Counted from the first letter of the stretch, positions 24,051-35,608 are shown. The stretch is 64,000 bases of DNA from Escherichia coli (GCF_048403405.1 NZ_CP183129.1), one strand, 5' to 3'. The notes: generated by a model not told the origin, from the sequence alone. A program made the numbers and translations.

Positions 24051-25304
24051 ATGTTAAAGCGTGAAATGAACATTGCCGATTATGATGCCGAACTGTGGCA
24101 GGCTATGGAGCAGGAAAAAGTACGTCAGGAAGAGCACATCGAACTGATCGCCTCCGAAAACTACACCAGCCCGCGCGTAATGCAGGCGCAGGGTTCTCAG
24201 CTGACCAACAAATATGCTGAAGGTTATCCGGGCAAACGCTACTACGGCGGTTGCGAGTATGTTGATATCGTTGAACAACTGGCGATCGATCGTGCGAAAG
24301 AACTGTTCGGCGCTGACTACGCTAACGTCCAGCCGCACTCCGGCTCCCAGGCTAACTTTGCGGTGTACACCGCGCTGCTGGAACCAGGCGATACCGTTCT
24401 GGGTATGAACCTGGCGCATGGCGGTCACCTGACTCACGGTTCTCCGGTTAACTTCTCCGGTAAACTGTATAACATCGTTCCTTACGGTATCGATGCTACC
24501 GGTCATATCGACTACGCCGATCTGGAAAAACAAGCCAAAGAACACAAACCGAAAATGATTATCGGTGGCTTCTCTGCATATTCCGGCGTGGTGGACTGGG
24601 CGAAAATGCGTGAAATCGCTGACAGCATCGGTGCTTACCTGTTCGTTGATATGGCGCACGTTGCGGGCCTGGTTGCTGCTGGCGTTTACCCGAACCCAGT
24701 TCCTCATGCTCACGTTGTTACTACCACCACTCACAAAACCCTGGCGGGTCCGCGCGGTGGCCTGATCCTGGCGAAAGGTGGTAGCGAAGAGCTGTACAAA
24801 AAACTGAACTCTGCCGTTTTCCCTGGTGGTCAGGGCGGTCCGTTGATGCACGTAATCGCCGGTAAAGCGGTTGCTCTGAAAGAAGCGATGGAGCCTGAGT
24901 TCAAAACTTACCAGCAGCAGGTCGCGAAAAACGCCAAAGCGATGGTAGAAGTGTTCCTGGAACGCGGCTACAAAGTGGTTTCTGGTGGTACTGATAACCA
25001 CCTGTTCCTGGTTGATCTGGTTGATAAAAACCTGACTGGTAAAGAAGCTGACGCCGCTCTGGGCCGTGCTAACATCACCGTTAACAAAAACAGCGTACCG
25101 AACGATCCGAAGAGCCCGTTTGTGACCTCCGGTATTCGCGTGGGTACTCCGGCGATTACCCGTCGTAGCTTTAAAGAAGCCGAAGCGAAAGAACTGGCTG
25201 GCTGGATGTGTGACGTGCTGGACAGCATCAATGATGAAGCGGTTATTGAGCGCATCAAAGGTAAAGTTCTCGACATCTGTGCACGTTACCCGGTTTACGC
25301 ATAA
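24051..25304 (+). CDS. glyA: serine hydroxymethyltransferase (417 aa)
   Basis: PLP-lysine motif [13 protein letters not shown]; start chosen at [12 protein letters not shown]. Confidence 0.95.
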
Positions 25305-25328
25305 GCGAAACGGTTAATCTGTTGAAAA

Positions 25329-25350
25329 AAGGCTTCCTTCGGGAAGCCTT
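25329..25350. terminator. bidirectional hairpin between convergent glyA and yphH
   Basis: aaggcttcc-ttcg-ggaagcctt preceded by an A-run and followed by tct. Confidence 0.55.
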
Positions 25351-25367
25351 TCTACGTTATCGCGCCA

Positions 25368-26567
25368 TCAAATCTGTCGTAACTGCGCCTCAACATACAA
25401 ATAGCCAATCCCCAGCACCTGTTGTGCGCGGCTTAATTGCCCAAAGCCAATTTTCGTCTCTTTCACGCTCGGTCCTTCGTCGCGGTCGAACGGGTTAAAT
25501 CCCGTCTGGCGAATAATGGTATTAAGCCAGTGCTCACCAAAGGCACAACTGCGACCGTACAACCAAATCTGATTAATATTGAGGATGTTGAGGAAGTTAT
25601 ACAGACTCAAACCAATGGCATTGGCAGAGCGATCAACCCAGCTGGTGATCCACGGTTCTCCACTCTGCCAGGCAGCGATTAACTGCGCTGTTGTCAGTTT
25701 TTCAGGATCAAGCTGAGTATTAACCGGTTGTGATTTTAGCCATACCCGCGCCTGTTTTTTTAATGCGCTTAACGAGGCGACGGTTTCCAGGCAACCATAA
25801 CGTCCGCAGTCGCAGACGACGCCATCCGGATTAACGATGGTGTGACCAATCTGTCCGCTACCATACAAACAGCCGCGATAAATTTGCTCGTTAATCACGA
25901 ACGACGAGCCAATGCCGTAATCAACGTTGATCACGCAGAAATCCCGTTCCTGCGAATTATTTTGCCATTTCTCCGCCAGCGCCAGCATCACGCAGTCATT
26001 ATCGACCATCACCCGAATGCCGAGCTTCTCTTCCAGCAGATACTTTACCTCAACCGGCGTTGTCCACGGCGCTTGCGGCATGGTTTGCGACACGCCGGTC
26101 ACCGGATCAACCTGACCGTGGATTGCCAGCGCCAGGTTGATGGTACGGTCCGGCCACAATTTACGGTGGCGATGCCAGCATTTTTCGATTTCGGACAGCA
26201 GCGCCTGCGGCGTCGGTGCATCAATCTGTAAATACTCAAATTCACCTTTCGGACTTAAACAGGCGTTAGCGACCTGACACTCAATACTGGTGGGCGTCAC
26301 GTTCAGGCACAGCGTCCAGTCACCTTCCGGCGCAATCAGCCATGTACCGCTACTATGCCCGCGCGTCTGGCTTTCATCGTCGATATTCACCACCCGTTTT
26401 TCGCTTTCCAGTTCCTGCAAAATATTACTGACCGCCGGAATCGAAATTTGCGCCAGCCGGGCCAGGGTTGATTTATTGGCGCGCTTTTGCCGGTACAGCA
26501 GTTCCAGAATCACGCATTTGTTATGGTGGCGAATCTGTTGATTATTAATGCAGGCTCTCATCTTCAC
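25368..26567 (-). CDS. yphH: ROK-family (NagC/Mlc-like) transcriptional regulator (399 aa)
   Basis: N-terminal HTH; ROK zinc motif CDCGRYGCLE; divergent from yphG. Confidence 0.85.
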   Translation of the reverse strand: MKMRACINNQQIRHHNKCVILELLYRQKRANKSTLARLAQISIPAVSNILQELESEKRVVNIDDESQTRGHSSGTWLIAPEGDWTLCLNVTPTSIECQVANACLSPKGEFEYLQIDAPTPQALLSEIEKCWHRHRKLWPDRTINLALAIHGQVDPVTGVSQTMPQAPWTTPVEVKYLLEEKLGIRVMVDNDCVMLALAEKWQNNSQERDFCVINVDYGIGSSFVINEQIYRGCLYGSGQIGHTIVNPDGVVCDCGRYGCLETVASLSALKKQARVWLKSQPVNTQLDPEKLTTAQLIAAWQSGEPWITSWVDRSANAIGLSLYNFLNILNINQIWLYGRSCAFGEHWLNTIIRQTGFNPFDRDEGPSVKETKIGFGQLSRAQQVLGIGYLYVEAQLRQI

Positions 26568-26678
26568 TAAACCTTGTTTAGTTAATTGCGTGATTATTCC
26601 GCGAAAACATTGCCAGATTGTTCAATACACTGCCACAAATCTTTTAATTCAGTATGTCTTGTTAATATTGAGGGCACC

Positions 26679-29600
26679 ATGACTCCAGTAAAAGTGTGGC
26701 AAGAGCGCGTTGAGATCCCGACCTATGAAACCGGGCCGCAGGATATACATCCCATGTTCCTGGAAAATCGCGTTTATCAGGGATCGTCCGGCGCGGTTTA
26801 TCCCTACGGCGTGACCGATACGCTGAGCGAGCAGAAAACCCTGAAATCCTGGCAGGCGGTGTGGCTGGAAAACGACTACATCAAAGTGATGATCCTGCCG
26901 GAACTGGGCGGTCGGGTGCATCGCGCGTGGGATAAAGTGAAACAGCGCGATTTTGTCTATCACAATGAAGTCATTAAACCGGCGCTGGTGGGGCTGCTGG
27001 GACCGTGGATCTCCGGCGGGATTGAGTTTAACTGGCCGCAACACCATCGCCCGACCACCTTTATGCCCGTTGATTTCACCCTCGAAGCCCATGAAGACGG
27101 CGCACAGACGGTGTGGGTAGGCGAAACGGAGCCGATGCATGGTTTACAGGTGATGACAGGTTTCACCCTGCGTCCTGACCGGGCGGCGCTGGAAATCGCC
27201 AGCCGCGTCTATAACGGCAACGCCACGCCGCGTCATTTCTTGTGGTGGGCCAACCCGGCAGTGAAAGGGGGTGAAGGGCATCAGAGCGTTTTCCCACCGG
27301 ATGTGACTGCGGTGTTTGATCACGGCAAACGGGCCGTCTCTGCTTTCCCCATCGCCACCGGCACTTACTACAAAGTGGACTACTCCGCTGGAGTGGACAT
27401 TTCTCGCTATAAAAATGTGCCTGTTCCAACCTCATATATGGCTGAAAAATCACAGTACGATTTTGTTGGCGCGTGGTGTCACGATGAAGATGGCGGTTTG
27501 CTGCACGTTGCCAACCACCATATTGCGCCAGGTAAAAAACAGTGGAGTTGGGGACACAGTGAATTTGGCCAGGCGTGGGATAAGAGTCTGACCGACAATA
27601 ACGGCCCGTATATCGAACTGATGACCGGTATTTTTGCCGATAACCAGCCTGATTTTACCTGGCTTGATGCGTACGAAGAGAAGCGTTTCGAGCAGTATTT
27701 CCTGCCTTATCATTCTCTGGGCATGGTGCAAAATGCCTCCCGCGATGCGGTGATAAAACTCCAGCGTAGTGAGCGGGGGATTGAGTGGGGGCTGTATGCC
27801 ATCTCTCCGTTGAAAGGATACCGTCTGGCGATCCGCGAAATCGGCAAATGCAACGCGTTACTCGATGATGCCGTGGCCCTGACACCAGCGACCGCCATCC
27901 AGGGCGTGTTGCACGGTATCAATCCTGACAGACTGACCATTGAACTCTCCGATGCCGACGGCAATATTGTACTGAGTTATCAGGAACATCAGCCGCAAGA
28001 GTTGCCGTTGCCGGACGTCGCCAAAGCGCCACTGGCAGCACAAGACATTACCAGTACAGATGAAGCCTGGTTTATCGGTCAGCATCTGGAGCAATATCAT
28101 CACGCCAGCCGTTCACCGTTCGATTACTACCTGCGCGGCGTGGCGCTGGATCCGCTGGATTATCGCTGTAACCTGGCGCTGGCGATGCTGGAATATAACC
28201 GCGCCGATTTCCCGCAAGCGGTGGCGTATGCCACTCAGGCGCTGAAACGCGCACATGCGCTGAACAAAAATCCGCAGTGCGGACAGGCGAGTTTGATTCG
28301 CGCCAGTGCTTACGAACGTCAGGGACAATATCAACAAGCCGAAGAGGATTTCTGGCGTGCGGTCTGGAGCGGCAACAGTAAAGCCGGAGGCTATTATGGT
28401 CTGGCACGACTGGCGGCGCGTAATGGTAACTTCGACGCGGGTCTGGATTTTTGCCAACAAAGTCTTCGCGCCTGCCCAACCAATCAGGAAGTGCTTTGCC
28501 TGCATAATCTGCTGCTGGTGTTAAGTGGTCGTCAGGACAACGCGCGTTTGCAGCGCGAGAAACTGCTGCGCGATTATCCGCTGAACGCCACTCTGTGGTG
28601 GCTGAACTGGTTCGATGGTCGTAGCGAATCAGCTCTCGCGCAGTGGCGCGGTCTGTGTCAGGGACGCGACGTTAACGCCCTGATGACCGCCGGGCAACTG
28701 ATTAACTGGGGAATGCCCACCCTGGCGGCAGAGATGCTGAACGCACTGGACTGCCAGCGCACGCTGCCGCTTTACCTGCAAGCCAGCTTGCTGCCGAAAG
28801 CCGAACGTGGCGAACTGGTCGCAAAAGCCATTGATGTCTTCCCGCAGTTTGTCCGTTTCCCGAATACGCTGGAAGAAGTGGCGGCGCTGGAGAGTATTGA
28901 AGAGTGCTGGTTTGCCCGTCATTTATTGGCCTGCTTCTACTACAACAAGCGTAGCTACGGCAAAGCCATTGCCTTATGGCAACGTTGCGTAGAGATGTCG
29001 CCGGAGTTTGCCGACGGCTGGCGCGGGTTAGCGATCCATGCGTGGAATAAGCAACACGATTATGAGCTGGCCGCGCGTTATCTTGATAATGCTTATCAGC
29101 TTGCGCCGCAGGATGCACGTCTGCTTTTCGAACGGGATTTGCTGGATAAGTTAAGTGGAGCCACACCGGAGAAACGACTGGCGCGTCTGGAAAATAATCT
29201 GGAAATTGCGCTGAAACGCGACGACATGACCGCAGAACTGCTCAATTTGTGGCATCTCACGGGTCAGGCAGACAAAGCGGCGGACATTCTCGCCACGCGC
29301 AAATTCCACCCGTGGGAAGGCGGGGAAGGGAAGATCACCAGTCAGTTTATCCTCAACCAGTTATTACGCGCCTGGCAGCATCTTGATGCCAGAGAGCCGC
29401 AGCAGGCCAGCGAACTGCTTCATGCCGCGCTGCATTATCCGGAGAATTTAAGCGAAGGCCGTTTACCGGGGCAAACTGATAACGACATCTGGTTCTGGCA
29501 GGCGATATGCGCCAACGCGCAGGGCGATGAAACTGAAGCGACGCGTTGTTTACGTCTGGCGGCGACTGGCGATCGCACCATTAACATTCACAGTTATTAC

Positions 29601-29960
29601 AACGATCAGCCGGTTGATTATCTCTTCTGGCAAGGAATGGCGCTGCGACTGCTGGGTGAACAGCAAACCGCACAGCAACTGTTTAGTGAAATGAAACAGT
29701 GGGCGCAAGAGATGGCGAAAACCAGTATTGAGGCGGATTTCTTTGCTGTTTCACAACCTGACCTGTTATCGCTGTATGGCGATTTACAACAGCAGCATAA
29801 AGAAAAATGCCTGATGGTGGCGATGCTGGCGTCCGCGGGACTCGGGGAGGTTGCGCACTATGAATCTGCTCGCGCTGAATTGACGGCGATTAATCCGGCC
29901 TGGCCGAAAGCGGCATTATTCACCACTGTGATGCCTTTTATTTTTAACCGCGTTCACTAA
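26679..29960 (+). CDS. yphG: large uncharacterised protein with a C-terminal TPR-like repeat region (1093 aa from ATG 26679; 1124 aa if ATG 26586 is used)
   Basis: ORF 26586..29960; the 26679 ATG has GAGGG 6 nt upstream and leaves room for divergent promoters; no signal peptide or transmembrane segment seen. Confidence 0.8.
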   Translation: MTPVKVWQERVEIPTYETGPQDIHPMFLENRVYQGSSGAVYPYGVTDTLSEQKTLKSWQAVWLENDYIKVMILPELGGRVHRAWDKVKQRDFVYHNEVIKPALVGLLGPWISGGIEFNWPQHHRPTTFMPVDFTLEAHEDGAQTVWVGETEPMHGLQVMTGFTLRPDRAALEIASRVYNGNATPRHFLWWANPAVKGGEGHQSVFPPDVTAVFDHGKRAVSAFPIATGTYYKVDYSAGVDISRYKNVPVPTSYMAEKSQYDFVGAWCHDEDGGLLHVANHHIAPGKKQWSWGHSEFGQAWDKSLTDNNGPYIELMTGIFADNQPDFTWLDAYEEKRFEQYFLPYHSLGMVQNASRDAVIKLQRSERGIEWGLYAISPLKGYRLAIREIGKCNALLDDAVALTPATAIQGVLHGINPDRLTIELSDADGNIVLSYQEHQPQELPLPDVAKAPLAAQDITSTDEAWFIGQHLEQYHHASRSPFDYYLRGVALDPLDYRCNLALAMLEYNRADFPQAVAYATQALKRAHALNKNPQCGQASLIRASAYERQGQYQQAEEDFWRAVWSGNSKAGGYYGLARLAARNGNFDAGLDFCQQSLRACPTNQEVLCLHNLLLVLSGRQDNARLQREKLLRDYPLNATLWWLNWFDGRSESALAQWRGLCQGRDVNALMTAGQLINWGMPTLAAEMLNALDCQRTLPLYLQASLLPKAERGELVAKAIDVFPQFVRFPNTLEEVAALESIEECWFARHLLACFYYNKRSYGKAIALWQRCVEMSPEFADGWRGLAIHAWNKQHDYELAARYLDNAYQLAPQDARLLFERDLLDKLSGATPEKRLARLENNLEIALKRDDMTAELLNLWHLTGQADKAADILATRKFHPWEGGEGKITSQFILNQLLRAWQHLDAREPQQASELLHAALHYPENLSEGRLPGQTDNDIWFWQAICANAQGDETEATRCLRLAATGDRTINIHSYYNDQPVDYLFWQGMALRLLGEQQTAQQLFSEMKQWAQEMAKTSIEADFFAVSQPDLLSLYGDLQQQHKEKCLMVAMLASAGLGEVAHYESARAELTAINPAWPKAALFTTVMPFIFNRVH

Positions 29961-30056
29961 ACCCTATTAACTGTAATATTTGAGCGGCACGCGCTGCCGC
30001 TCATCACAAAATAATTAGAATAAGCCGTTGTAAATAAAAACCCTACAGGAGGCACT

Positions 30057-31040
30057 ATGCCTAAAAAAATGAGAACAACCCGTAATCTATTATTAATGGC
30101 TACGCTATTAGGTAGCGCTCTATTTGCCAGGGCAGCGGATAAAGAAATGACCATTGGTGCAATATACCTTGATACCCAGGGATATTACGCTGGCGTGCGT
30201 CAGGGCGTTCAGGATGCGGCAAAAGATTCTTCAGTACAGGTACAGTTAATTGAAACTAACGCCCAGGGCGATATTTCGAAAGAAAGTACTTTTGTAGATA
30301 CCCTCGTGGCGCGTAATGTCGATGCCATTATTTTATCGGCAGTATCTGAAAATGGCAGTAGCCGTACCGTTCGTCGCGCCAGTGAAGCGGGTATTCCGGT
30401 GATTTGCTACAACACCTGTATTAATCAAAAGGGTGTCGATAAATATGTCTCGGCATATCTGGTTGGTGACCCGCTGGAATTTGGTAAAAAACTGGGTAAC
30501 GCTGCCGCCGATTATTTTATTGCCAACAAAATTGACCAGCCGAAAATTGCCGTCATCAATTGCGAAGCCTTTGAAGTTTGTGTGCAACGACGTAAAGGGT
30601 TTGAAGAAGTATTAAAAGCCCGCGTTCCCGGCGCGCAAATTGTCGCTAATCAGGAAGGGACTGTTTTAGATAAAGCGATTTCCGTTGGTGAAAAACTAAT
30701 TATCTCCACGTCGGATCTCAACGCCATTATGGGGGAATCGGGCGGTGCGACACTCGGCGCGGTAAAAGCGGTACGTAATCAAAATCAGGCCGGAAAAATT
30801 GCTGTTTTCGGTTCGGATATGACCACTGAAATTGCTCAGGAGCTGGAAAACAATCAGGTGCTGAAAGCGGTGGTGGATATTTCCGGTAAGAAAATGGGCA
30901 ATGCTGTTTTCGCGCAAACTTTGAAGGTTATCAATAAACAAGCCGACGGTGAAAAAGTGATTCAGGTGCCAATCGATCTCTATACCAAAACGGAAGACGG
31001 TAAACAGTGGCTGGCAACGCACGTTGATGGTCTGCCCTAA
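30057..31040 (+). CDS. yphF: ABC transporter periplasmic sugar-binding protein (327 aa)
   Basis: Signal peptide MPKKMRTTRNLLLMATLLGSALFARA; type I periplasmic binding fold; SD AGGAGG upstream. Confidence 0.85.
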   Translation: MPKKMRTTRNLLLMATLLGSALFARAADKEMTIGAIYLDTQGYYAGVRQGVQDAAKDSSVQVQLIETNAQGDISKESTFVDTLVARNVDAIILSAVSENGSSRTVRRASEAGIPVICYNTCINQKGVDKYVSAYLVGDPLEFGKKLGNAAADYFIANKIDQPKIAVINCEAFEVCVQRRKGFEEVLKARVPGAQIVANQEGTVLDKAISVGEKLIISTSDLNAIMGESGGATLGAVKAVRNQNQAGKIAVFGSDMTTEIAQELENNQVLKAVVDISGKKMGNAVFAQTLKVINKQADGEKVIQVPIDLYTKTEDGKQWLATHVDGLP

Positions 31041-31062
31041 TCGCTGATTCGCAGAGGTCCCT

Positions 31063-32574
31063 ATGTTCACGGCAACAGAGGCAGTCCCGGTAGCAAAAGT
31101 GGTGGCAGGAAATAAGCGTTATCCCGGCGTCGTTGCGTTGGATAACGTTAACTTCACGCTCAATAAAGGCGAAGTTCGTGCGCTGTTAGGCAAAAACGGC
31201 GCGGGCAAATCGACCCTCATTCGAATGCTTACCGGCAGTGAACGTCCGGATAGCGGTGATATCTGGATTGGCGAGACGCGACTGGAAGGTGACGAAGCTA
31301 CGTTGACTCGCCGTGCCGCTGAACTGGGGGTTCGTGCGGTTTATCAGGAGTTAAGTCTGGTGGAGGGACTGACGGTGGCGGAAAACCTCTGCCTCGGTCA
31401 GTGGCCCCGCCGCAACGGCATGATTGATTACCTGCAAATGGCGCAGGATGCCCAACGTTGCTTACAGGCGCTGGGCGTTGACGTTAGCCCTGAACAACTT
31501 GTTTCAACGCTAAGCCCGGCACAAAAGCAACTGGTGGAAATTGCGCGGGTGATGAAGGGCGAGCCGCGCGTGGTCATTCTTGATGAACCTACCAGTTCGC
31601 TTGCCAGTGCGGAAGTTGAACTGGTGATCAGTGCGGTTAAAAAGATGTCGGCACTGGGCGTGGCGGTGATTTATGTCAGCCACCGGATGGAAGAAATCCG
31701 CCGCATTGCCTCCTGTGCCACCGTTATGCGCGATGGTCAGGTGGCGGGCGATGTGATGCTCGAAAACACCTCCACGCATCATATTGTGTCGCTAATGCTC
31801 GGGCGCGATCACGTTGATATTGCGCCGGTTGCCCCTCAGGAAATTGTCGATCAGGCTGTGCTGGTAGTCCGTGCGTTACGCCATAAGCCCAAGCTGGAGG
31901 ATATCAGCTTTACGCTACGTCGTGGCGAAGTACTCGGCATTGCTGGCCTGCTGGGGGCAGGGCGCAGTGAATTGCTGAAGGCGATTGTTGGGCTGGAGAC
32001 GTATGAACAGGGCGAAATTGTTATCAACGGCGAGAAAATCACGCGCCCCGATTACGGCGACATGCTGAAACGCGGCATTGGCTATACGCCAGAAAACCGC
32101 AAAGAAGCGGGGATCATTCCCTGGCTGGGCGTTGACGAAAATACAGTGCTGACCAATCGGCAAAAAATCAGCGCCAACGGTGTGCTGCAATGGTCCACCA
32201 TCCGCCGCCTGACCGAAGAGGTGATGCAGCGGATGACGGTCAAGGCCGCCAGTAGCGAAACGCCCATCGGCACGCTTTCTGGCGGCAATCAGCAAAAAGT
32301 GGTGATCGGTCGTTGGGTCTATGCCGCCAGCCAGATTTTGTTGCTCGACGAGCCAACGCGTGGCGTCGATATCGAAGCCAAACAGCAGATTTACCGTATT
32401 GTCCGCGAGCTGGCTGCCGAAGGAAAAAGTGTGGTGTTTATCTCCAGTGAAGTGGAGGAGTTGCCGCTGGTGTGTGACCGCATCCTGTTATTACAGCACG
32501 GTACGTTCTCGCAGGAGTTTCACTCGCCGGTCAATGTGGATGAGCTGATGTCCGCCATTCTGTCTGTGCACTGA
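31063..32574 (+). CDS. yphE: sugar ABC transporter ATP-binding protein, duplicated ABC domains (503 aa)
   Basis: Walker A GKNGAGKST, a second ABC domain and signature LSGGNQQK. Confidence 0.9.
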   Translation: MFTATEAVPVAKVVAGNKRYPGVVALDNVNFTLNKGEVRALLGKNGAGKSTLIRMLTGSERPDSGDIWIGETRLEGDEATLTRRAAELGVRAVYQELSLVEGLTVAENLCLGQWPRRNGMIDYLQMAQDAQRCLQALGVDVSPEQLVSTLSPAQKQLVEIARVMKGEPRVVILDEPTSSLASAEVELVISAVKKMSALGVAVIYVSHRMEEIRRIASCATVMRDGQVAGDVMLENTSTHHIVSLMLGRDHVDIAPVAPQEIVDQAVLVVRALRHKPKLEDISFTLRRGEVLGIAGLLGAGRSELLKAIVGLETYEQGEIVINGEKITRPDYGDMLKRGIGYTPENRKEAGIIPWLGVDENTVLTNRQKISANGVLQWSTIRRLTEEVMQRMTVKAASSETPIGTLSGGNQQKVVIGRWVYAASQILLLDEPTRGVDIEAKQQIYRIVRELAAEGKSVVFISSEVEELPLVCDRILLLQHGTFSQEFHSPVNVDELMSAILSVH

Positions 32575-32598
32575 TGAATTTTACCGAGGAACCTGAAG

Positions 32599-33597
32599 AT
32601 GTCTGCTTCGTCATTACCATTGCCGCAGGGCAAGAGCGTCTCGCTCAAACAATTTGTCAGTCGCCATATTAATGAGATCGGTTTGCTGGTGGTGATCGCC
32701 ATTCTTTATCTGGTCTTCTCTCTGAACGCGCCGGGTTTTATCTCATTGAATAACCAGATGAACGTGCTGCGCGATGCCGCCACCATTGGGATTGCCGCCT
32801 GGGCGATGACGCTGATTATTATCTCCGGAGAAATTGATGTCAGCGTTGGGCCGATGGTGGCTTTTGTCTCGGTGTGCCTGGCATTTTTGCTGCAATTTGA
32901 AGTTCCGCTGGCGATAGCTTGTCTGCTGGTGTTGCTGTTAGGCGCGCTGATGGGAACGCTGGCCGGGGTGCTGCGCGGCGTGTTTAACGTGCCAAGTTTT
33001 GTTGCCACGCTGGGTTTATGGAGCGCCCTGCGCGGAATGGGGCTGTTTATGACGAACGCCTTGCCAGTGCCGATTGACGAAAACGAAGTGCTGGACTGGC
33101 TGGGGGGACAATTTCTCGGTGTGCCGGTATCCGCGCTGATCATGATGGTGTTGTTTGCGCTGTTTGTGTTCATCAGCCGCAAAACCGCCTTCGGGCGCTC
33201 GGTTTTTGCTGTTGGCGGTAATGCCACTGCAGCACAGTTGTGCGGTATTAACGTTCGTCGGGTACGCATTCTTATTTTTACCCTTTCGGGATTATTAGCG
33301 GCGGTGACCGGCATTTTGTTGGCGGCGCGCCTCGGTTCCGGTAACGCAGGTGCCGCAAACGGTCTGGAGTTTGACGTCATCGCCGCGGTCGTGGTTGGCG
33401 GTACGGCGCTTTCCGGTGGTCGCGGCTCGTTGTTCGGTACGCTGCTTGGCGTACTGGTGATTACGCTAATCGGTAACGGTCTGGTGCTGCTCGGGATTAA
33501 CTCCTTTTTCCAGCAGGTGGTGCGCGGCGTCATCATCGTGGTGGCGGTGCTGGCGAATATCTTGCTGACTCAGCGAAGCAGTAAAGCGAAACGCTAA
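32599..33597 (+). CDS. yphD: sugar ABC transporter permease (332 aa)
   Basis: Polytopic hydrophobic protein of the RbsC/AraH-like permease type immediately after yphE. Confidence 0.85.
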   Translation: MSASSLPLPQGKSVSLKQFVSRHINEIGLLVVIAILYLVFSLNAPGFISLNNQMNVLRDAATIGIAAWAMTLIIISGEIDVSVGPMVAFVSVCLAFLLQFEVPLAIACLLVLLLGALMGTLAGVLRGVFNVPSFVATLGLWSALRGMGLFMTNALPVPIDENEVLDWLGGQFLGVPVSALIMMVLFALFVFISRKTAFGRSVFAVGGNATAAQLCGINVRRVRILIFTLSGLLAAVTGILLAARLGSGNAGAANGLEFDVIAAVVVGGTALSGGRGSLFGTLLGVLVITLIGNGLVLLGINSFFQQVVRGVIIVVAVLANILLTQRSSKAKR

Positions 33598-33662
33598 ACC
33601 TTAACGCCCCTGGCGCGGGTGCGGCAGGGATGAAAATTAATCGTATTGTTAATGAGGGATTT

Positions 33663-34724
33663 ATGAAAACGATGCTGGCAGCTTATTTACCAGGAAATTC
33701 GACCGTCGATCTGCGGGAAGTTGCGGTGCCGACGCCGGGGATTAACCAGGTACTGATCAAAATGAAATCCTCCGGGATTTGCGGAAGTGATGTCCACTAT
33801 ATCTATCATCAACACCGTGCCACGGCAGCGGCACCCGATAAACCGTTATACCAGGGATTTATCAACGGTCATGAACCGTGCGGGCAAATTGTGGAGATGG
33901 GGCAAGGCTGCCGCCATTTTAAAGAGGGCGACCGCGTGCTGGTGTATCACATTTCTGGCTGTGGTTTTTGCCCGAACTGCCGCCGCGGCTTTCCTATCTC
34001 TTGTACTGGCAAAGGAAAAGCGGCTTACGGCTGGCAGCGTGACGGCGGCCATGCTGAATACCTGCTGGCGGAAGAAAAAGATCTGATCCTGCTCCCGGAC
34101 GCGCTGAGCTATGAAGATGGTGCGTTTATCAGTTGCGGCGTTGGTACAGCGTATGAAGGGATTTTGCGCGGCGAAGTTTCCGGCAGTGATAACGTGCTGG
34201 TGGTCGGTCTGGGGCCGGTCGGCATGATGGCGATGATGCTGGCGAAAGGTCGCGGTGCAAAACGGATCATCGGCGTTGATATGCTGCCGGAACGTCTGGC
34301 GATGGCGAAACAGTTAGGGGTGATGGATCACGGCTATTTAGCAACCACCGAAGGTCTGCCGCAGATTATCGCCGAACTCACCCACGGTGGCGCGGATGTT
34401 GCGCTCGATTGTTCCGGTAATGCCGCAGGTCGCTTACTGGCGTTGCAATCCACTGCTGACTGGGGACGGGTGGTTTACATCGGAGAAACCGGAAAAGTGG
34501 AGTTCGAGGTTAGCGCCGATCTGATGCATCATCAACGGCGGATTATTGGCTCCTGGGTAACCAGTTTGTTCCATATGGAAAAATGTGCCCACGATTTGAC
34601 TGACTGGAAACTGTGGCCGCGTAATGCCATTACCCATCGCTTCACGCTGGAACAGGCAGGAGATGCCTATGCGCTGATGGCGAGCGGTAAATGCGGGAAA
34701 GTTGTGATTAACTTCCCGGATTAA
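33663..34724 (+). CDS. yphC: Zn-dependent alcohol/polyol dehydrogenase family protein (353 aa)
   Basis: GHEPCG zinc-ligand motif and Rossmann GLGPVG; start chosen at MKTMLAAYLPG. Confidence 0.85.
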   Translation: MKTMLAAYLPGNSTVDLREVAVPTPGINQVLIKMKSSGICGSDVHYIYHQHRATAAAPDKPLYQGFINGHEPCGQIVEMGQGCRHFKEGDRVLVYHISGCGFCPNCRRGFPISCTGKGKAAYGWQRDGGHAEYLLAEEKDLILLPDALSYEDGAFISCGVGTAYEGILRGEVSGSDNVLVVGLGPVGMMAMMLAKGRGAKRIIGVDMLPERLAMAKQLGVMDHGYLATTEGLPQIIAELTHGGADVALDCSGNAAGRLLALQSTADWGRVVYIGETGKVEFEVSADLMHHQRRIIGSWVTSLFHMEKCAHDLTDWKLWPRNAITHRFTLEQAGDAYALMASGKCGKVVINFPD

Positions 34725-34735
34725 GGAGTCAGCGG

Positions 34736-35608
34736 ATGACCATCTATACGTTATCTCACGGGCCGCTAGAGCTGGACGTTTCTGACCGGGGCGGCGTCAT
34801 CGAAGGCTTCTGGCGTGACGCGACGCCGCTCTTACGTCCCGGTAAAAAAAGCGGTGTGGCAACCGATGCCTCTTGTTTTCCGCTGGTGCCGTTTGCAAAC
34901 CGGGTGAGCGGCAATCGTTTTGTCTGGCAGGGGCGTGAGTATCAACTGCAACCGAATGTTGAGTGGGATGCGCACTATCTGCACGGCGACGGCTGGCTGG
35001 GGCAGTGGCAATGTGTCTCGCGCAGCGAAGATAGCTTGTGTCTGGTGTATGAACATCGCAGCGGTGTTTATCACTATCGGGTAAGTCAGGCGTTTCATTT
35101 AACGGCAGATACGCTGACGGTGACGCTCTCTGTCACCAATCAAGGGGCAGAGACGCTGCCATTTGGTACCGGCTGGCATCCTTATTTTCCGTTGTCACCA
35201 CAAACGCGGATTCAGGCGCAGGCGAGCGGTTACTGGCTGGAGCGGGAGCAGTGGCTGGCGGGTGAGTTTTGCGAGCAGCTACCGCAGGAACTGGATTTCA
35301 ACCAGCTCGCGCCGTTGCCGCGCCAGTGGGTGAACAATGGTTTTGCCGGATGGAATGGTCAGGCTCGCATCGAGCAGCCGCAGGAGGGTTATGCCATCAT
35401 CATGGAAACGACGCCACCTGCACCATGTTATTTCATCTTTGTTTCCGACCCGGCGTTTGATAAAGGATATGCGTTTGATTTCTTCTGTCTGGAACCGATG
35501 AGCCATGCGCCGGATGACCATCATCGCCCGGAAGGTGGTGATCTCATTGCGCTTGCACCAGGGGAATCAACAACTTCAGAGATGTCGTTGCGGGTTGCGT
35601 TACTGTAA
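34736..35608 (+). CDS. yphB: aldose 1-epimerase (mutarotase)-like protein (290 aa)
   Basis: ORF 34736..35608 with conserved His/Glu pattern of the aldose-epimerase superfamily. Confidence 0.8.
   Translation: MTIYTLSHGPLELDVSDRGGVIEGFWRDATPLLRPGKKSGVATDASCFPLVPFANRVSGNRFVWQGREYQLQPNVEWDAHYLHGDGWLGQWQCVSRSEDSLCLVYEHRSGVYHYRVSQAFHLTADTLTVTLSVTNQGAETLPFGTGWHPYFPLSPQTRIQAQASGYWLEREQWLAGEFCEQLPQELDFNQLAPLPRQWVNNGFAGWNGQARIEQPQEGYAIIMETTPPAPCYFIFVSDPAFDKGYAFDFFCLEPMSHAPDDHHRPEGGDLIALAPGESTTSEMSLRVALL

Follow-up and report, generated by a model that had tools for sequence, protein, structure and literature searches.

The yphG locus of Escherichia coli

The subject of this analysis is a 64-kb segment of an Escherichia coli chromosome (hereafter the window; coordinates count from its first base) and, within it, an open reading frame (ORF) of 1124 codons on the + strand. 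It runs from a TTG at 26586 to 29960, with an in-frame ATG at 26679 that leads to a protein of 1093 aa. Sequence and RefSeq agree that this is the E. coli gene yphG, as had been recognized in an earlier reading of the sequence alone (the sequence-only reading), and the peptide YYLRGVALDPLDYRCNLALAMLEYNRADFPQA quoted there is found in the YphG translation. The gene is annotated as 'DUF5107 domain-containing protein' and is, to our knowledge, among the largest E. coli genes still without function. We suggest that its product is probably an uncharacterised sugar-processing enzyme. Window bases 25300-30100 are 100% identical to several complete E. coli genomes and were found in 5425 of 5426, always on the chromosome.

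We take ATG 26679 to be the true start of yphG (26679-29960, + strand; 1093 aa plus stop), the codon that the sequence-only reading had favoured over 26586. RefSeq annotates the 1093-aa form from this ATG, and so long are all 14 full-length members listed from an E. coli protein cluster of 18,305. Most cytoplasmic homologues start 4-10 residues ahead of a conserved V-x-x-W-x-E-x-x-x-IPTY motif, as YphG (MTPVKVWQERVEIPTY) does; a few have non-homologous N-terminal extensions. In-frame stops close the equivalent of the 31-codon extension (26586..26678, + strand) in Enterobacter, Budvicia, Citrobacter, Cedecea and Aeromonas. The extension is thus non-coding and belongs to a regulatory intergenic region of 117 bp. 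TTG 26586 itself falls within an invariant non-coding motif, ATTGCGTGA (26585-26593), whose DNA sequence is kept even in relatives with stops in this frame. On these grounds TTG 26586 was ruled out as the start. The Shine-Dalgarno sequence GAGGG, which the sequence-only reading had placed ahead of 26679, is present at 26670..26674 (+ strand), 4 nt from the ATG, and adds to the preference for it; this site reads TTGAGGG in close relatives and GGAG in others. The 18-bp gap between TTG 26586 and the divergent yphH, also cited in favour of the later start, is correct only for the GTG at 26567 from which a mechanical ORF call begins yphH. The start of yphH is ambiguous (window 26559-26567), and from the RefSeq ATG at 26561 the distances are 24 bp to TTG 26586 and 117 bp to ATG 26679.

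The divergent yphH (25368-26561, - strand, RefSeq ATG start) encodes a ROK-family, NagC/Mlc-like regulator (Pfam ROK, E 2.5e-32, with a weak match to the MarR helix-turn-helix); YphH has been described as an uncharacterised third ROK repressor of E. coli (PMC4288165). Downstream of yphG and on the same + strand follow yphF (30057-31040), a periplasmic sugar-binding protein (Pfam Peripla_BP_4), yphE (31063-32574), the ATPase of an ATP-binding cassette (ABC) transporter (two ABC_tran matches), and yphD (32599-33597), a permease (BPD_transp_2). By these Pfam families, yphFED (30057..33597) encodes an ABC importer of the CUT2, monosaccharide type. The cluster ends with yphC (33630-34724), of the Zn-dependent alcohol/polyol dehydrogenase family (ADH_N, ADH_zinc_N), and yphB (34736-35608), an aldose 1-epimerase (mutarotase). 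The gap between yphG and yphF is 96 bp, and those after yphF are 11-32 bp. The sequence-only reading described yphG as embedded in a transporter operon; its linkage to a sugar transporter stands, but yphG is the first gene of the cluster, ahead of yphFEDCB, and is not embedded in it.

The models nearest to YphF are allose, galactose, ribose and galactofuranose binding proteins, every one below its cut-off, and its closest solved relative is 5hsg (E 3e-23), whose library entry gives no ligand. Of the NCBIfam models, those of L-threonine 3-dehydrogenase and scyllo-inosose 3-dehydrogenase come closest to yphC, again without reaching the cut-off. A proteomics study of levoglucosan reported induction of YphF together with many other sugar transporters, a response that is not specific. 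Some records of E. coli and relatives (P0001, P0005, P0013) hold truncated yphG products of 463-741 aa, which may reflect an interrupted gene in a minority of strains or fragmented assemblies.

Two places in the cluster carry a 22-bp box, TCACTAAAC-C-NNN-TTWACTGTA, present twice in the window where 0.02 copies are expected. Box 1 (TCACTAAACCTTGTTTAGTTAA, 26564..26585, + strand) is a conserved imperfect palindrome in the yphH-yphG intergenic region, followed by the invariant motif mentioned above. It abuts or overlaps the yphH start region (26559-26567) and the yphH ribosome-binding site. Of 14 loci compared from Enterobacterales, Aeromonas and Photobacterium, 13 have a copy ahead of yphG with 1-5 mismatches; the exception is Photobacterium. 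Box 2 (TCACTAAACCCTATTAACTGTA, 29954..29975, + strand) matches the cross-genus consensus exactly; it overlaps the stop codon of yphG, and yphF starts 82 bp further downstream. A close copy is seen only at loci in which the ABC genes come after yphG, and not at all of these: E. albertii has one with 1 mismatch, Budvicia diplopodorum one with 4 and Enterobacter one with 5, and Enterobacteriaceae RIT691 has none. No copy is present where a gene of the major facilitator superfamily (MFS) directly follows yphG. The conserved box is a good candidate for the YphH operator, and the E. coli cluster is probably controlled by YphH through its two copies. Because box 2 stands ahead of yphF, yphFEDCB may have a separately regulated promoter of its own, which bears on the co-transcription of yphG with yphFED that the sequence-only reading had raised. 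A sigma-70 consensus scan of 26300-30200 found no promoter.

The yphG-yphF gap also contains a GC-rich hairpin, GAGCGGCA-CGCGC-TGCCGCTC (29982..30002, + strand), read from the sequence; it has no T-run on either strand, and the terminator scan did not pick it up. It might stabilise RNA, bind protein as a palindrome or be an element resembling repetitive extragenic palindromic (REP) sequences. A weak terminator-like hairpin at 29912-29935 (8 pairs, then TTTTATTTTT) lies within the last yphG codons. Since only 3 of its pairs are G-C and it is inside coding sequence, it was not taken as evidence of termination.

Gene neighbourhoods of YphG relatives

A scan of one genome per species found at least 597 stretches encoding YphG relatives. 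The counts given here refer to the closest 80, in which ORFs were called, neighbours clustered and cluster representatives annotated. These loci belong to Enterobacterales, Aeromonas, Photobacterium, Lachnospiraceae, Butyrivibrio, Ruminococcaceae, Paenibacillus, Bacillus, Cohnella and many Bacteroidota. The pairing of a transporter with a YphG homologue proved to be conserved across phyla, so that YphG can no longer be regarded, as the sequence-only reading did, as the oddity of one operon. A monosaccharide-type transporter is present in 55 of the 80 loci, usually adjacent and on the same strand; 43 are sugar-porter MFS proteins (nearest model XylE) and about 14 are CUT2 ABC systems. A regulator, usually divergent and adjacent, accompanies 59 loci (AraC in 47, ROK in 12), and the 12 loci where a divergent ROK gene adjoins the yphG homologue are Enterobacterales. 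Several Enterobacterales genera show a swap of transporters, with MFS in place of ABC, while ROK, YphG and mutarotase are retained. Minimal loci consisting of AraC, MFS and the YphG homologue alone are frequent.

Glycoside hydrolase (GH) families GH2 and/or GH35 occur in 33 of the 80 loci; the GH2 proteins, of about 936 aa, are nearest to the model of exo-beta-1,4-galactosidase BT4151 and to PDB 8u01, which belongs to subfamily GH2_20, reported to hold beta-galactosidases for decorated substrates (PMC12243196). A mutarotase (YphB-like, GalM-like or DUF4432-like) is found in 22 loci, and the GalM-like ones exceed the cut-off of the galactose-1-epimerase subfamily. GH97, GH95, GH31, sulfatases, GDSL esterases and SusC/SusD are occasional neighbours. 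Among the approximately 40 largest annotated neighbour clusters, no kinase, aldolase or classical isomerase recurs. From the recurrence of beta-galactosidase-type GH2/GH35 and GalM-type neighbours we infer a galactose-configured substrate or product.

In Bacteroidota, the neighbouring GH2, GH35 and GDSL proteins carry signal peptides, whereas the YphG homologues with listed N-termini mostly do not. This difference suggests that the YphG step takes place after import.

Architecture, fold and conservation of YphG

YphG consists of three parts. Residues 1-345 (26679..27713, + strand) form the DUF5107 beta-sandwich, galactose-mutarotase-like in fold and the presumed catalytic or sugar-binding module. 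Pfam DUF5107 (PF17128) matches residues 39-324 at a score of 188.9 bits (cut-off 24.4; E 1.4e-55), a strong domain match that the sequence-only reading overlooked when it saw no recognisable catalytic motif and treated the N-terminal part as an anonymous region. Its description of the first 450 residues as rich in aromatic and acidic residues is not upheld either (FWY 11.3% vs 10.6% in the rest; DE 12.2% vs 11.8%). A second small beta domain, residues 346-440 (27714..27998, + strand), is delimited by AlphaFold secondary structure. Residues 441-1093 (27999..29957, + strand) comprise a linker and a TPR-type helical superhelix. Here the helical repeats noticed from sequence are real: four Pfam TPR models score above cut-off (TPR_16, 62.4 bits with a cut-off of 32.7; TPR_14, 43.6 with 23.5; TPR_2, 40.9 with 27; TPR_1, 37.9 with 27.8), with matches between residues 483 and 640 and at about 743-815. 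The maximal Kyte-Doolittle mean over 19 aa is 1.22 and there is no hydrophobic stretch, which indicates no transmembrane segment or signal peptide, in line with the sequence-only reading; YphG is therefore predicted to be cytoplasmic, and its N-terminal sequence shows neither the signal peptide nor the lipoprotein signal of secreted or periplasmic carbohydrate-active proteins.

The AlphaFold model of full-length YphG, made with 66 full-length homologues, has a predicted local distance difference test score (pLDDT) of 95.0 and a predicted template modelling score (pTM) of 0.93. Residues 460-1092 are entirely helical in it, with about 33 helices in a superhelix of some 630 aa that matches open TPR superhelices: O-GlcNAc transferase (OGT), Ski3, Ctr9, Naa15 and designed CTPRs. 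A model of the isolated N-terminal 470 residues, made with 30 sequences, reached pLDDT 71; conserved loops that are poorly modelled there become confident in the full-length model, which fits a predicted active site at the interface of the beta-sandwich and the TPR part.

Structure prediction and fold comparison had been named in the sequence-only reading as its own check, a generic fold with no carbohydrate-active site being the outcome to speak against it. What was obtained is a carbohydrate-handling fold in the DUF5107 domain, the beta-sandwich of galactose mutarotases, and hence not a generic one. YphG has the mutarotase fold, yet it lies outside the mutarotase sequence family, as no aldose 1-epimerase match (PF01263) was found for it in Pfam or NCBIfam. 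H122/H123, H215 and E313 are invariant and, judged by spacing and a non-significant alignment, are candidate equivalents of the mutarotase catalytic residues.

Since the closest functional fold matches are mutarotases, and since no feature of the loci is more conserved than the combination of a transporter and a mutarotase-fold protein, YphG could be thought of as merely a large mutarotase for one particular sugar, like those paired with transporters by galactose, fucose, rhamnose or ribose genes. We consider this very improbable. A conventional mutarotase stands alongside in 22 of the 80 loci, E. coli YphB included; YphG has no sequence-level similarity to the family; and 1100 residues with such conservation go far beyond the needs of known mutarotases of 290-350 aa.

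This conservation is extensive. An exhaustive profile search gave 1154 cluster representatives (50% identity clusters) at E < 1e-30. Of the best 150, about 110 have lengths of 1000-1200 aa and align over their full extent, so the whole build of YphG is conserved. Mean identities were computed over 65 diverse representatives, and ratios of nonsynonymous to synonymous substitution rates (dN/dS) against E. albertii and two enterobacterial relatives. The beta-sandwich stands out with 51% mean identity and dN/dS 0.013-0.03, as compared with 20% and 0.11-0.16 for the poorly conserved second beta domain and 26-28% and 0.07-0.11 for the TPR part; the whole gene has dN/dS 0.05-0.09 against E. albertii and Enterobacter. 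The N domain of E. coli YphG is 54-58% identical to proteins of Bacteroidota, Paenibacillus and Acidobacteria. About 47 of its polar residues are at least 85% conserved in the 65 representatives. Among the near-invariant ones are Y16, Q34, E64, N65, D85, K86, E116, N118, H122, H123, R124, N179, W190, N192, H215, S252, K286, K287, E313, N322, Q323, D325 and E333. Conserved polar positions of the TPR part are Q472, Y483, W563, R782, E818 and E880, the last within the motif PWEGGEG (877-883). Such a pattern is expected for an enzyme with its active site in the beta-sandwich and a helical domain required structurally.

TPR superhelices are typically protein-binding scaffolds, as the matches to OGT, Ski3, Ctr9 and Naa15 recall. 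A second possibility is that YphG is a non-catalytic sensor or adaptor, whose mutarotase-like domain binds sugar while the TPR part binds the YphH or AraC regulator or the transporter, thus tuning induction or transport. The regulator adjacent in 59 of 80 loci and the loci of regulator, transporter and YphG with no obvious catabolic enzyme would suit this. However, Pfam and NCBIfam scans found no DNA-binding, NTPase or signalling domain in YphG, which also sets it apart from MalT-like proteins. The regulator family shifts between ROK and AraC, and a distant secreted subfamily has LacI, yet YphG retains 40-58% identity, which is hard to reconcile with a specific protein-protein contact. Moreover, secreted relatives cannot contact a cytoplasmic regulator, one variant has its TPR part largely replaced by a carbohydrate-binding-like domain, and some 47 near-invariant polar residues with dN/dS of 0.01-0.03 in the beta-sandwich exceed the usual need of ligand binding. 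We find the sensor improbable, if less so than the plain mutarotase.

The variant in question (P0102; L090 5795-7918 and L091 4401-6524) is 707 aa long, and an F5/8-type-C (NedA-like galactose-binding) domain takes the place of most of its TPR part; it is found in the usual context of AraC, GH2 and MFS, beside SusC/SusD. Another variant carries a CBM9-like domain. Both variants speak for a carbohydrate-directed role of the protein in its entirety. Signal peptides are present in a minority of the distant relatives. Two subfamilies that carry them (L093 10001-15487 and L092 4168-8279), 30-33% identical, occur in other gene contexts: one beside a xylose-isomerase-like TIM-barrel protein and a GFO/IDH/MocA oxidoreductase, the other beside a CBM9-like protein and near RhaT, a mutarotase, an enolase-superfamily protein and dehydrogenases. 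The DUF5107 family as a whole probably serves several substrates.

Fusions of this kind bring us to the strongest competitor of an enzyme that converts a free monosaccharide, namely that YphG cleaves a glycosidic bond. In that case it would represent a new family of cytoplasmic glycoside hydrolases, phosphorylases or lyases with a small galactose-containing glycoside or disaccharide as substrate, and YphB or GalM would deal with the anomer of the freed aldose. Carbohydrate-binding-like domains such as F5/8 type C and CBM9 are usual companions of glycan-cleaving modules, and some YphG relatives are secreted. GH genes (GH2_20, GH35, GH97, GH95, GH31) are frequent neighbours, the mutarotase in 22 of 80 loci recalls operons where a glycosidase frees one anomer, and the conserved Lys, Arg and His could bind phosphate. 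On the other hand, sugar-porter MFS proteins (here nearest XylE) and CUT2 ABC systems are both classical monosaccharide carriers, and the loci often already have one to three beta-galactosidases. A phosphorylase architecture of the GH65/GH94 type was ruled out, because the helical domain of YphG forms a TPR superhelix, whereas GH15, GH65 and GH94 have an (alpha/alpha)6 barrel. Altogether we hold bond cleavage to be unlikely, though a more serious candidate than either the sensor or the plain mutarotase.

The family has members in Enterobacterales, in Lachnospiraceae and Prevotella of the gut, in Paenibacillus and Sphingobacteriia of soil and in Flavobacteriia of the sea. Among the markers that set phagotrophic marine stramenopiles apart from the other species is a DUF5107 orthologue group (PMC8163842), so the family occurs in eukaryotes too, possibly as a digestive enzyme. 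Two loci are irregular. In Paenibacillus sp. V4I3 (L003 10001-13335), the homologue takes the form of two overlapping ORFs, one of 475 aa with DUF5107 and one of 638 aa with the TPR part, either by a frameshift or as a natural two-gene form, and a 280-aa protein with no Pfam match comes after it. In Echinicola jeungdonensis (L004 1945-20891), there is a mirror-image duplicate of a unit of AraC, SusC, SusD, MFS and DUF5107 with many fragmented genes, which probably stems from misassembly or from the decay of a duplicated locus.

Proposed role of YphG and comparison with known systems

We propose that YphG is a cytoplasmic enzyme which converts an imported neutral sugar of monosaccharide size by means of a mutarotase-derived pocket, a reading built on fold, conservation and gene context to which we give an even chance. 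Its working part would be the DUF5107 domain as a divergent member of the galactose-mutarotase fold, and the TPR superhelix of 630 residues would pack on the N domain as a fixed clamp or lid, perhaps offering an oligomerisation surface as well. In the proposed course of events, the co-encoded transporter (the YphDEF ABC system in E. coli, a sugar-porter MFS protein in most other bacteria) would import the sugar, which would then be bound in a pocket of the invariant residues H122/H123, H215, E313, K286/K287, R124, N192, D325 and E333. Acid-base chemistry would most likely follow at the anomeric carbon or next to it: ring opening, and then anomerisation, change of ring form, epimerisation or isomerisation. 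The product would be a sugar usable by housekeeping pathways. The conventional mutarotase, YphB or its GalM-like counterpart elsewhere, might adjust the anomer before or after YphG acts. The analysis itself shows the gene with its start and its fold, how well it is conserved and which genes surround it; it is from these that we infer catalysis by YphG, the type of its chemistry and the link to galactose.

Several points weigh against this proposal. A literature search on yphG, DUF5107 and related yph genes turned up neither biochemical nor genetic nor phenotypic data on YphG or DUF5107. That a true mutarotase is encoded in 22 of 80 loci speaks against plain mutarotation as the reaction of YphG, and the galactose link is missing from the Enterobacterales loci themselves. 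At the sequence level no link to mutarotases was found: hhalign of DUF5107 alignments gave probabilities of 0.04% against YphB and 0.24% against an alignment of 16 epimerase sequences, neither of them significant, and a profile search of PDB found 5cd6 only and no epimerase. Linear spacing, read from the same non-significant alignment, may put W190/N192 at the expected position of the catalytic His. Finally, the gain in loop confidence in the full-length model could equally be explained by its deeper alignment (66 vs 30 sequences).

A wider proposal, which we advance more tentatively and at somewhat less than even chance, is that DUF5107-TPR proteins are a widespread, uncharacterised class of sugar-converting enzymes whose mutarotase-derived site performs a reaction new to the fold, and that yphGFEDCB-yphH is a cryptic, YphH-repressed pathway for a gut sugar so far missing from the carbon sources known for E. 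coli. For example, a galactose-type sugar might change its ring form or be epimerised or isomerised, or a small galactoside might be cleaved.

As an object YphG was already known: gene and Pfam family are both on record, as is a homologous crystal structure. New here are the fold assignment of the E. coli protein with a confident full-length model, its start codon, the candidate catalytic residues and two candidate operator sites, as well as a rule that holds across phyla: regulator, monosaccharide transporter and YphG, with or without beta-galactosidases and mutarotase. If the function of YphG were demonstrated, the whole yph cluster (transporter, dehydrogenase, mutarotase, repressor) would acquire a role, carbohydrate metabolism would probably gain a new reaction or enzyme family, and many polysaccharide-utilisation loci with adjoining beta-galactosidases could be better annotated. 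The handles for such work are the correct start for expression, the confident model, a short list of residues, a restricted class of substrates and the two candidate operators.

The sole solved structure that shares the build of YphG is PDB 5CD6 (BDI_1685 of Parabacteroides distasonis), a structural-genomics 'TPR-domain containing protein' to which the library entry assigns no function. It is 21% identical to YphG and half as long (575-580 aa), its TPR part is short, and both the NQPDF motif and the 216-240 insert of YphG are absent from it; H123, N192, H215, K287 and E313 are kept. Compared with aldose 1-epimerases (GalM 1l7j, B. subtilis 3mwx, YphB 3nre, YeaD 2hta), YphG shows 8-15% sequence identity and differs by large conserved insertions, the second beta domain and the 630-aa TPR superhelix.

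In OGT and SPINDLY, too, a long TPR superhelix is joined to a carbohydrate-related module, and the TPR part of YphG matches TPR domains of this type (Foldseek E 1e-10 to 1e-8). Their TPR part is N-terminal, however, i.e. in the opposite order to YphG, and their catalytic domain is a GT-B glycosyltransferase unrelated to the YphG N domain. Their TPRs bind protein substrates, for which there is no indication in YphG. GH65, GH94, GH15 and GH149 enzymes offer the other comparison. The (alpha/alpha)6 barrel that carries the catalytic acids in the GH65/GH94/GH15 type is not found in YphG, but the order of modules is the same, a mutarotase-like beta-sandwich followed by an all-helical domain, and a role in cytoplasmic sugar breakdown, as proposed for YphG, would be a further point in common.

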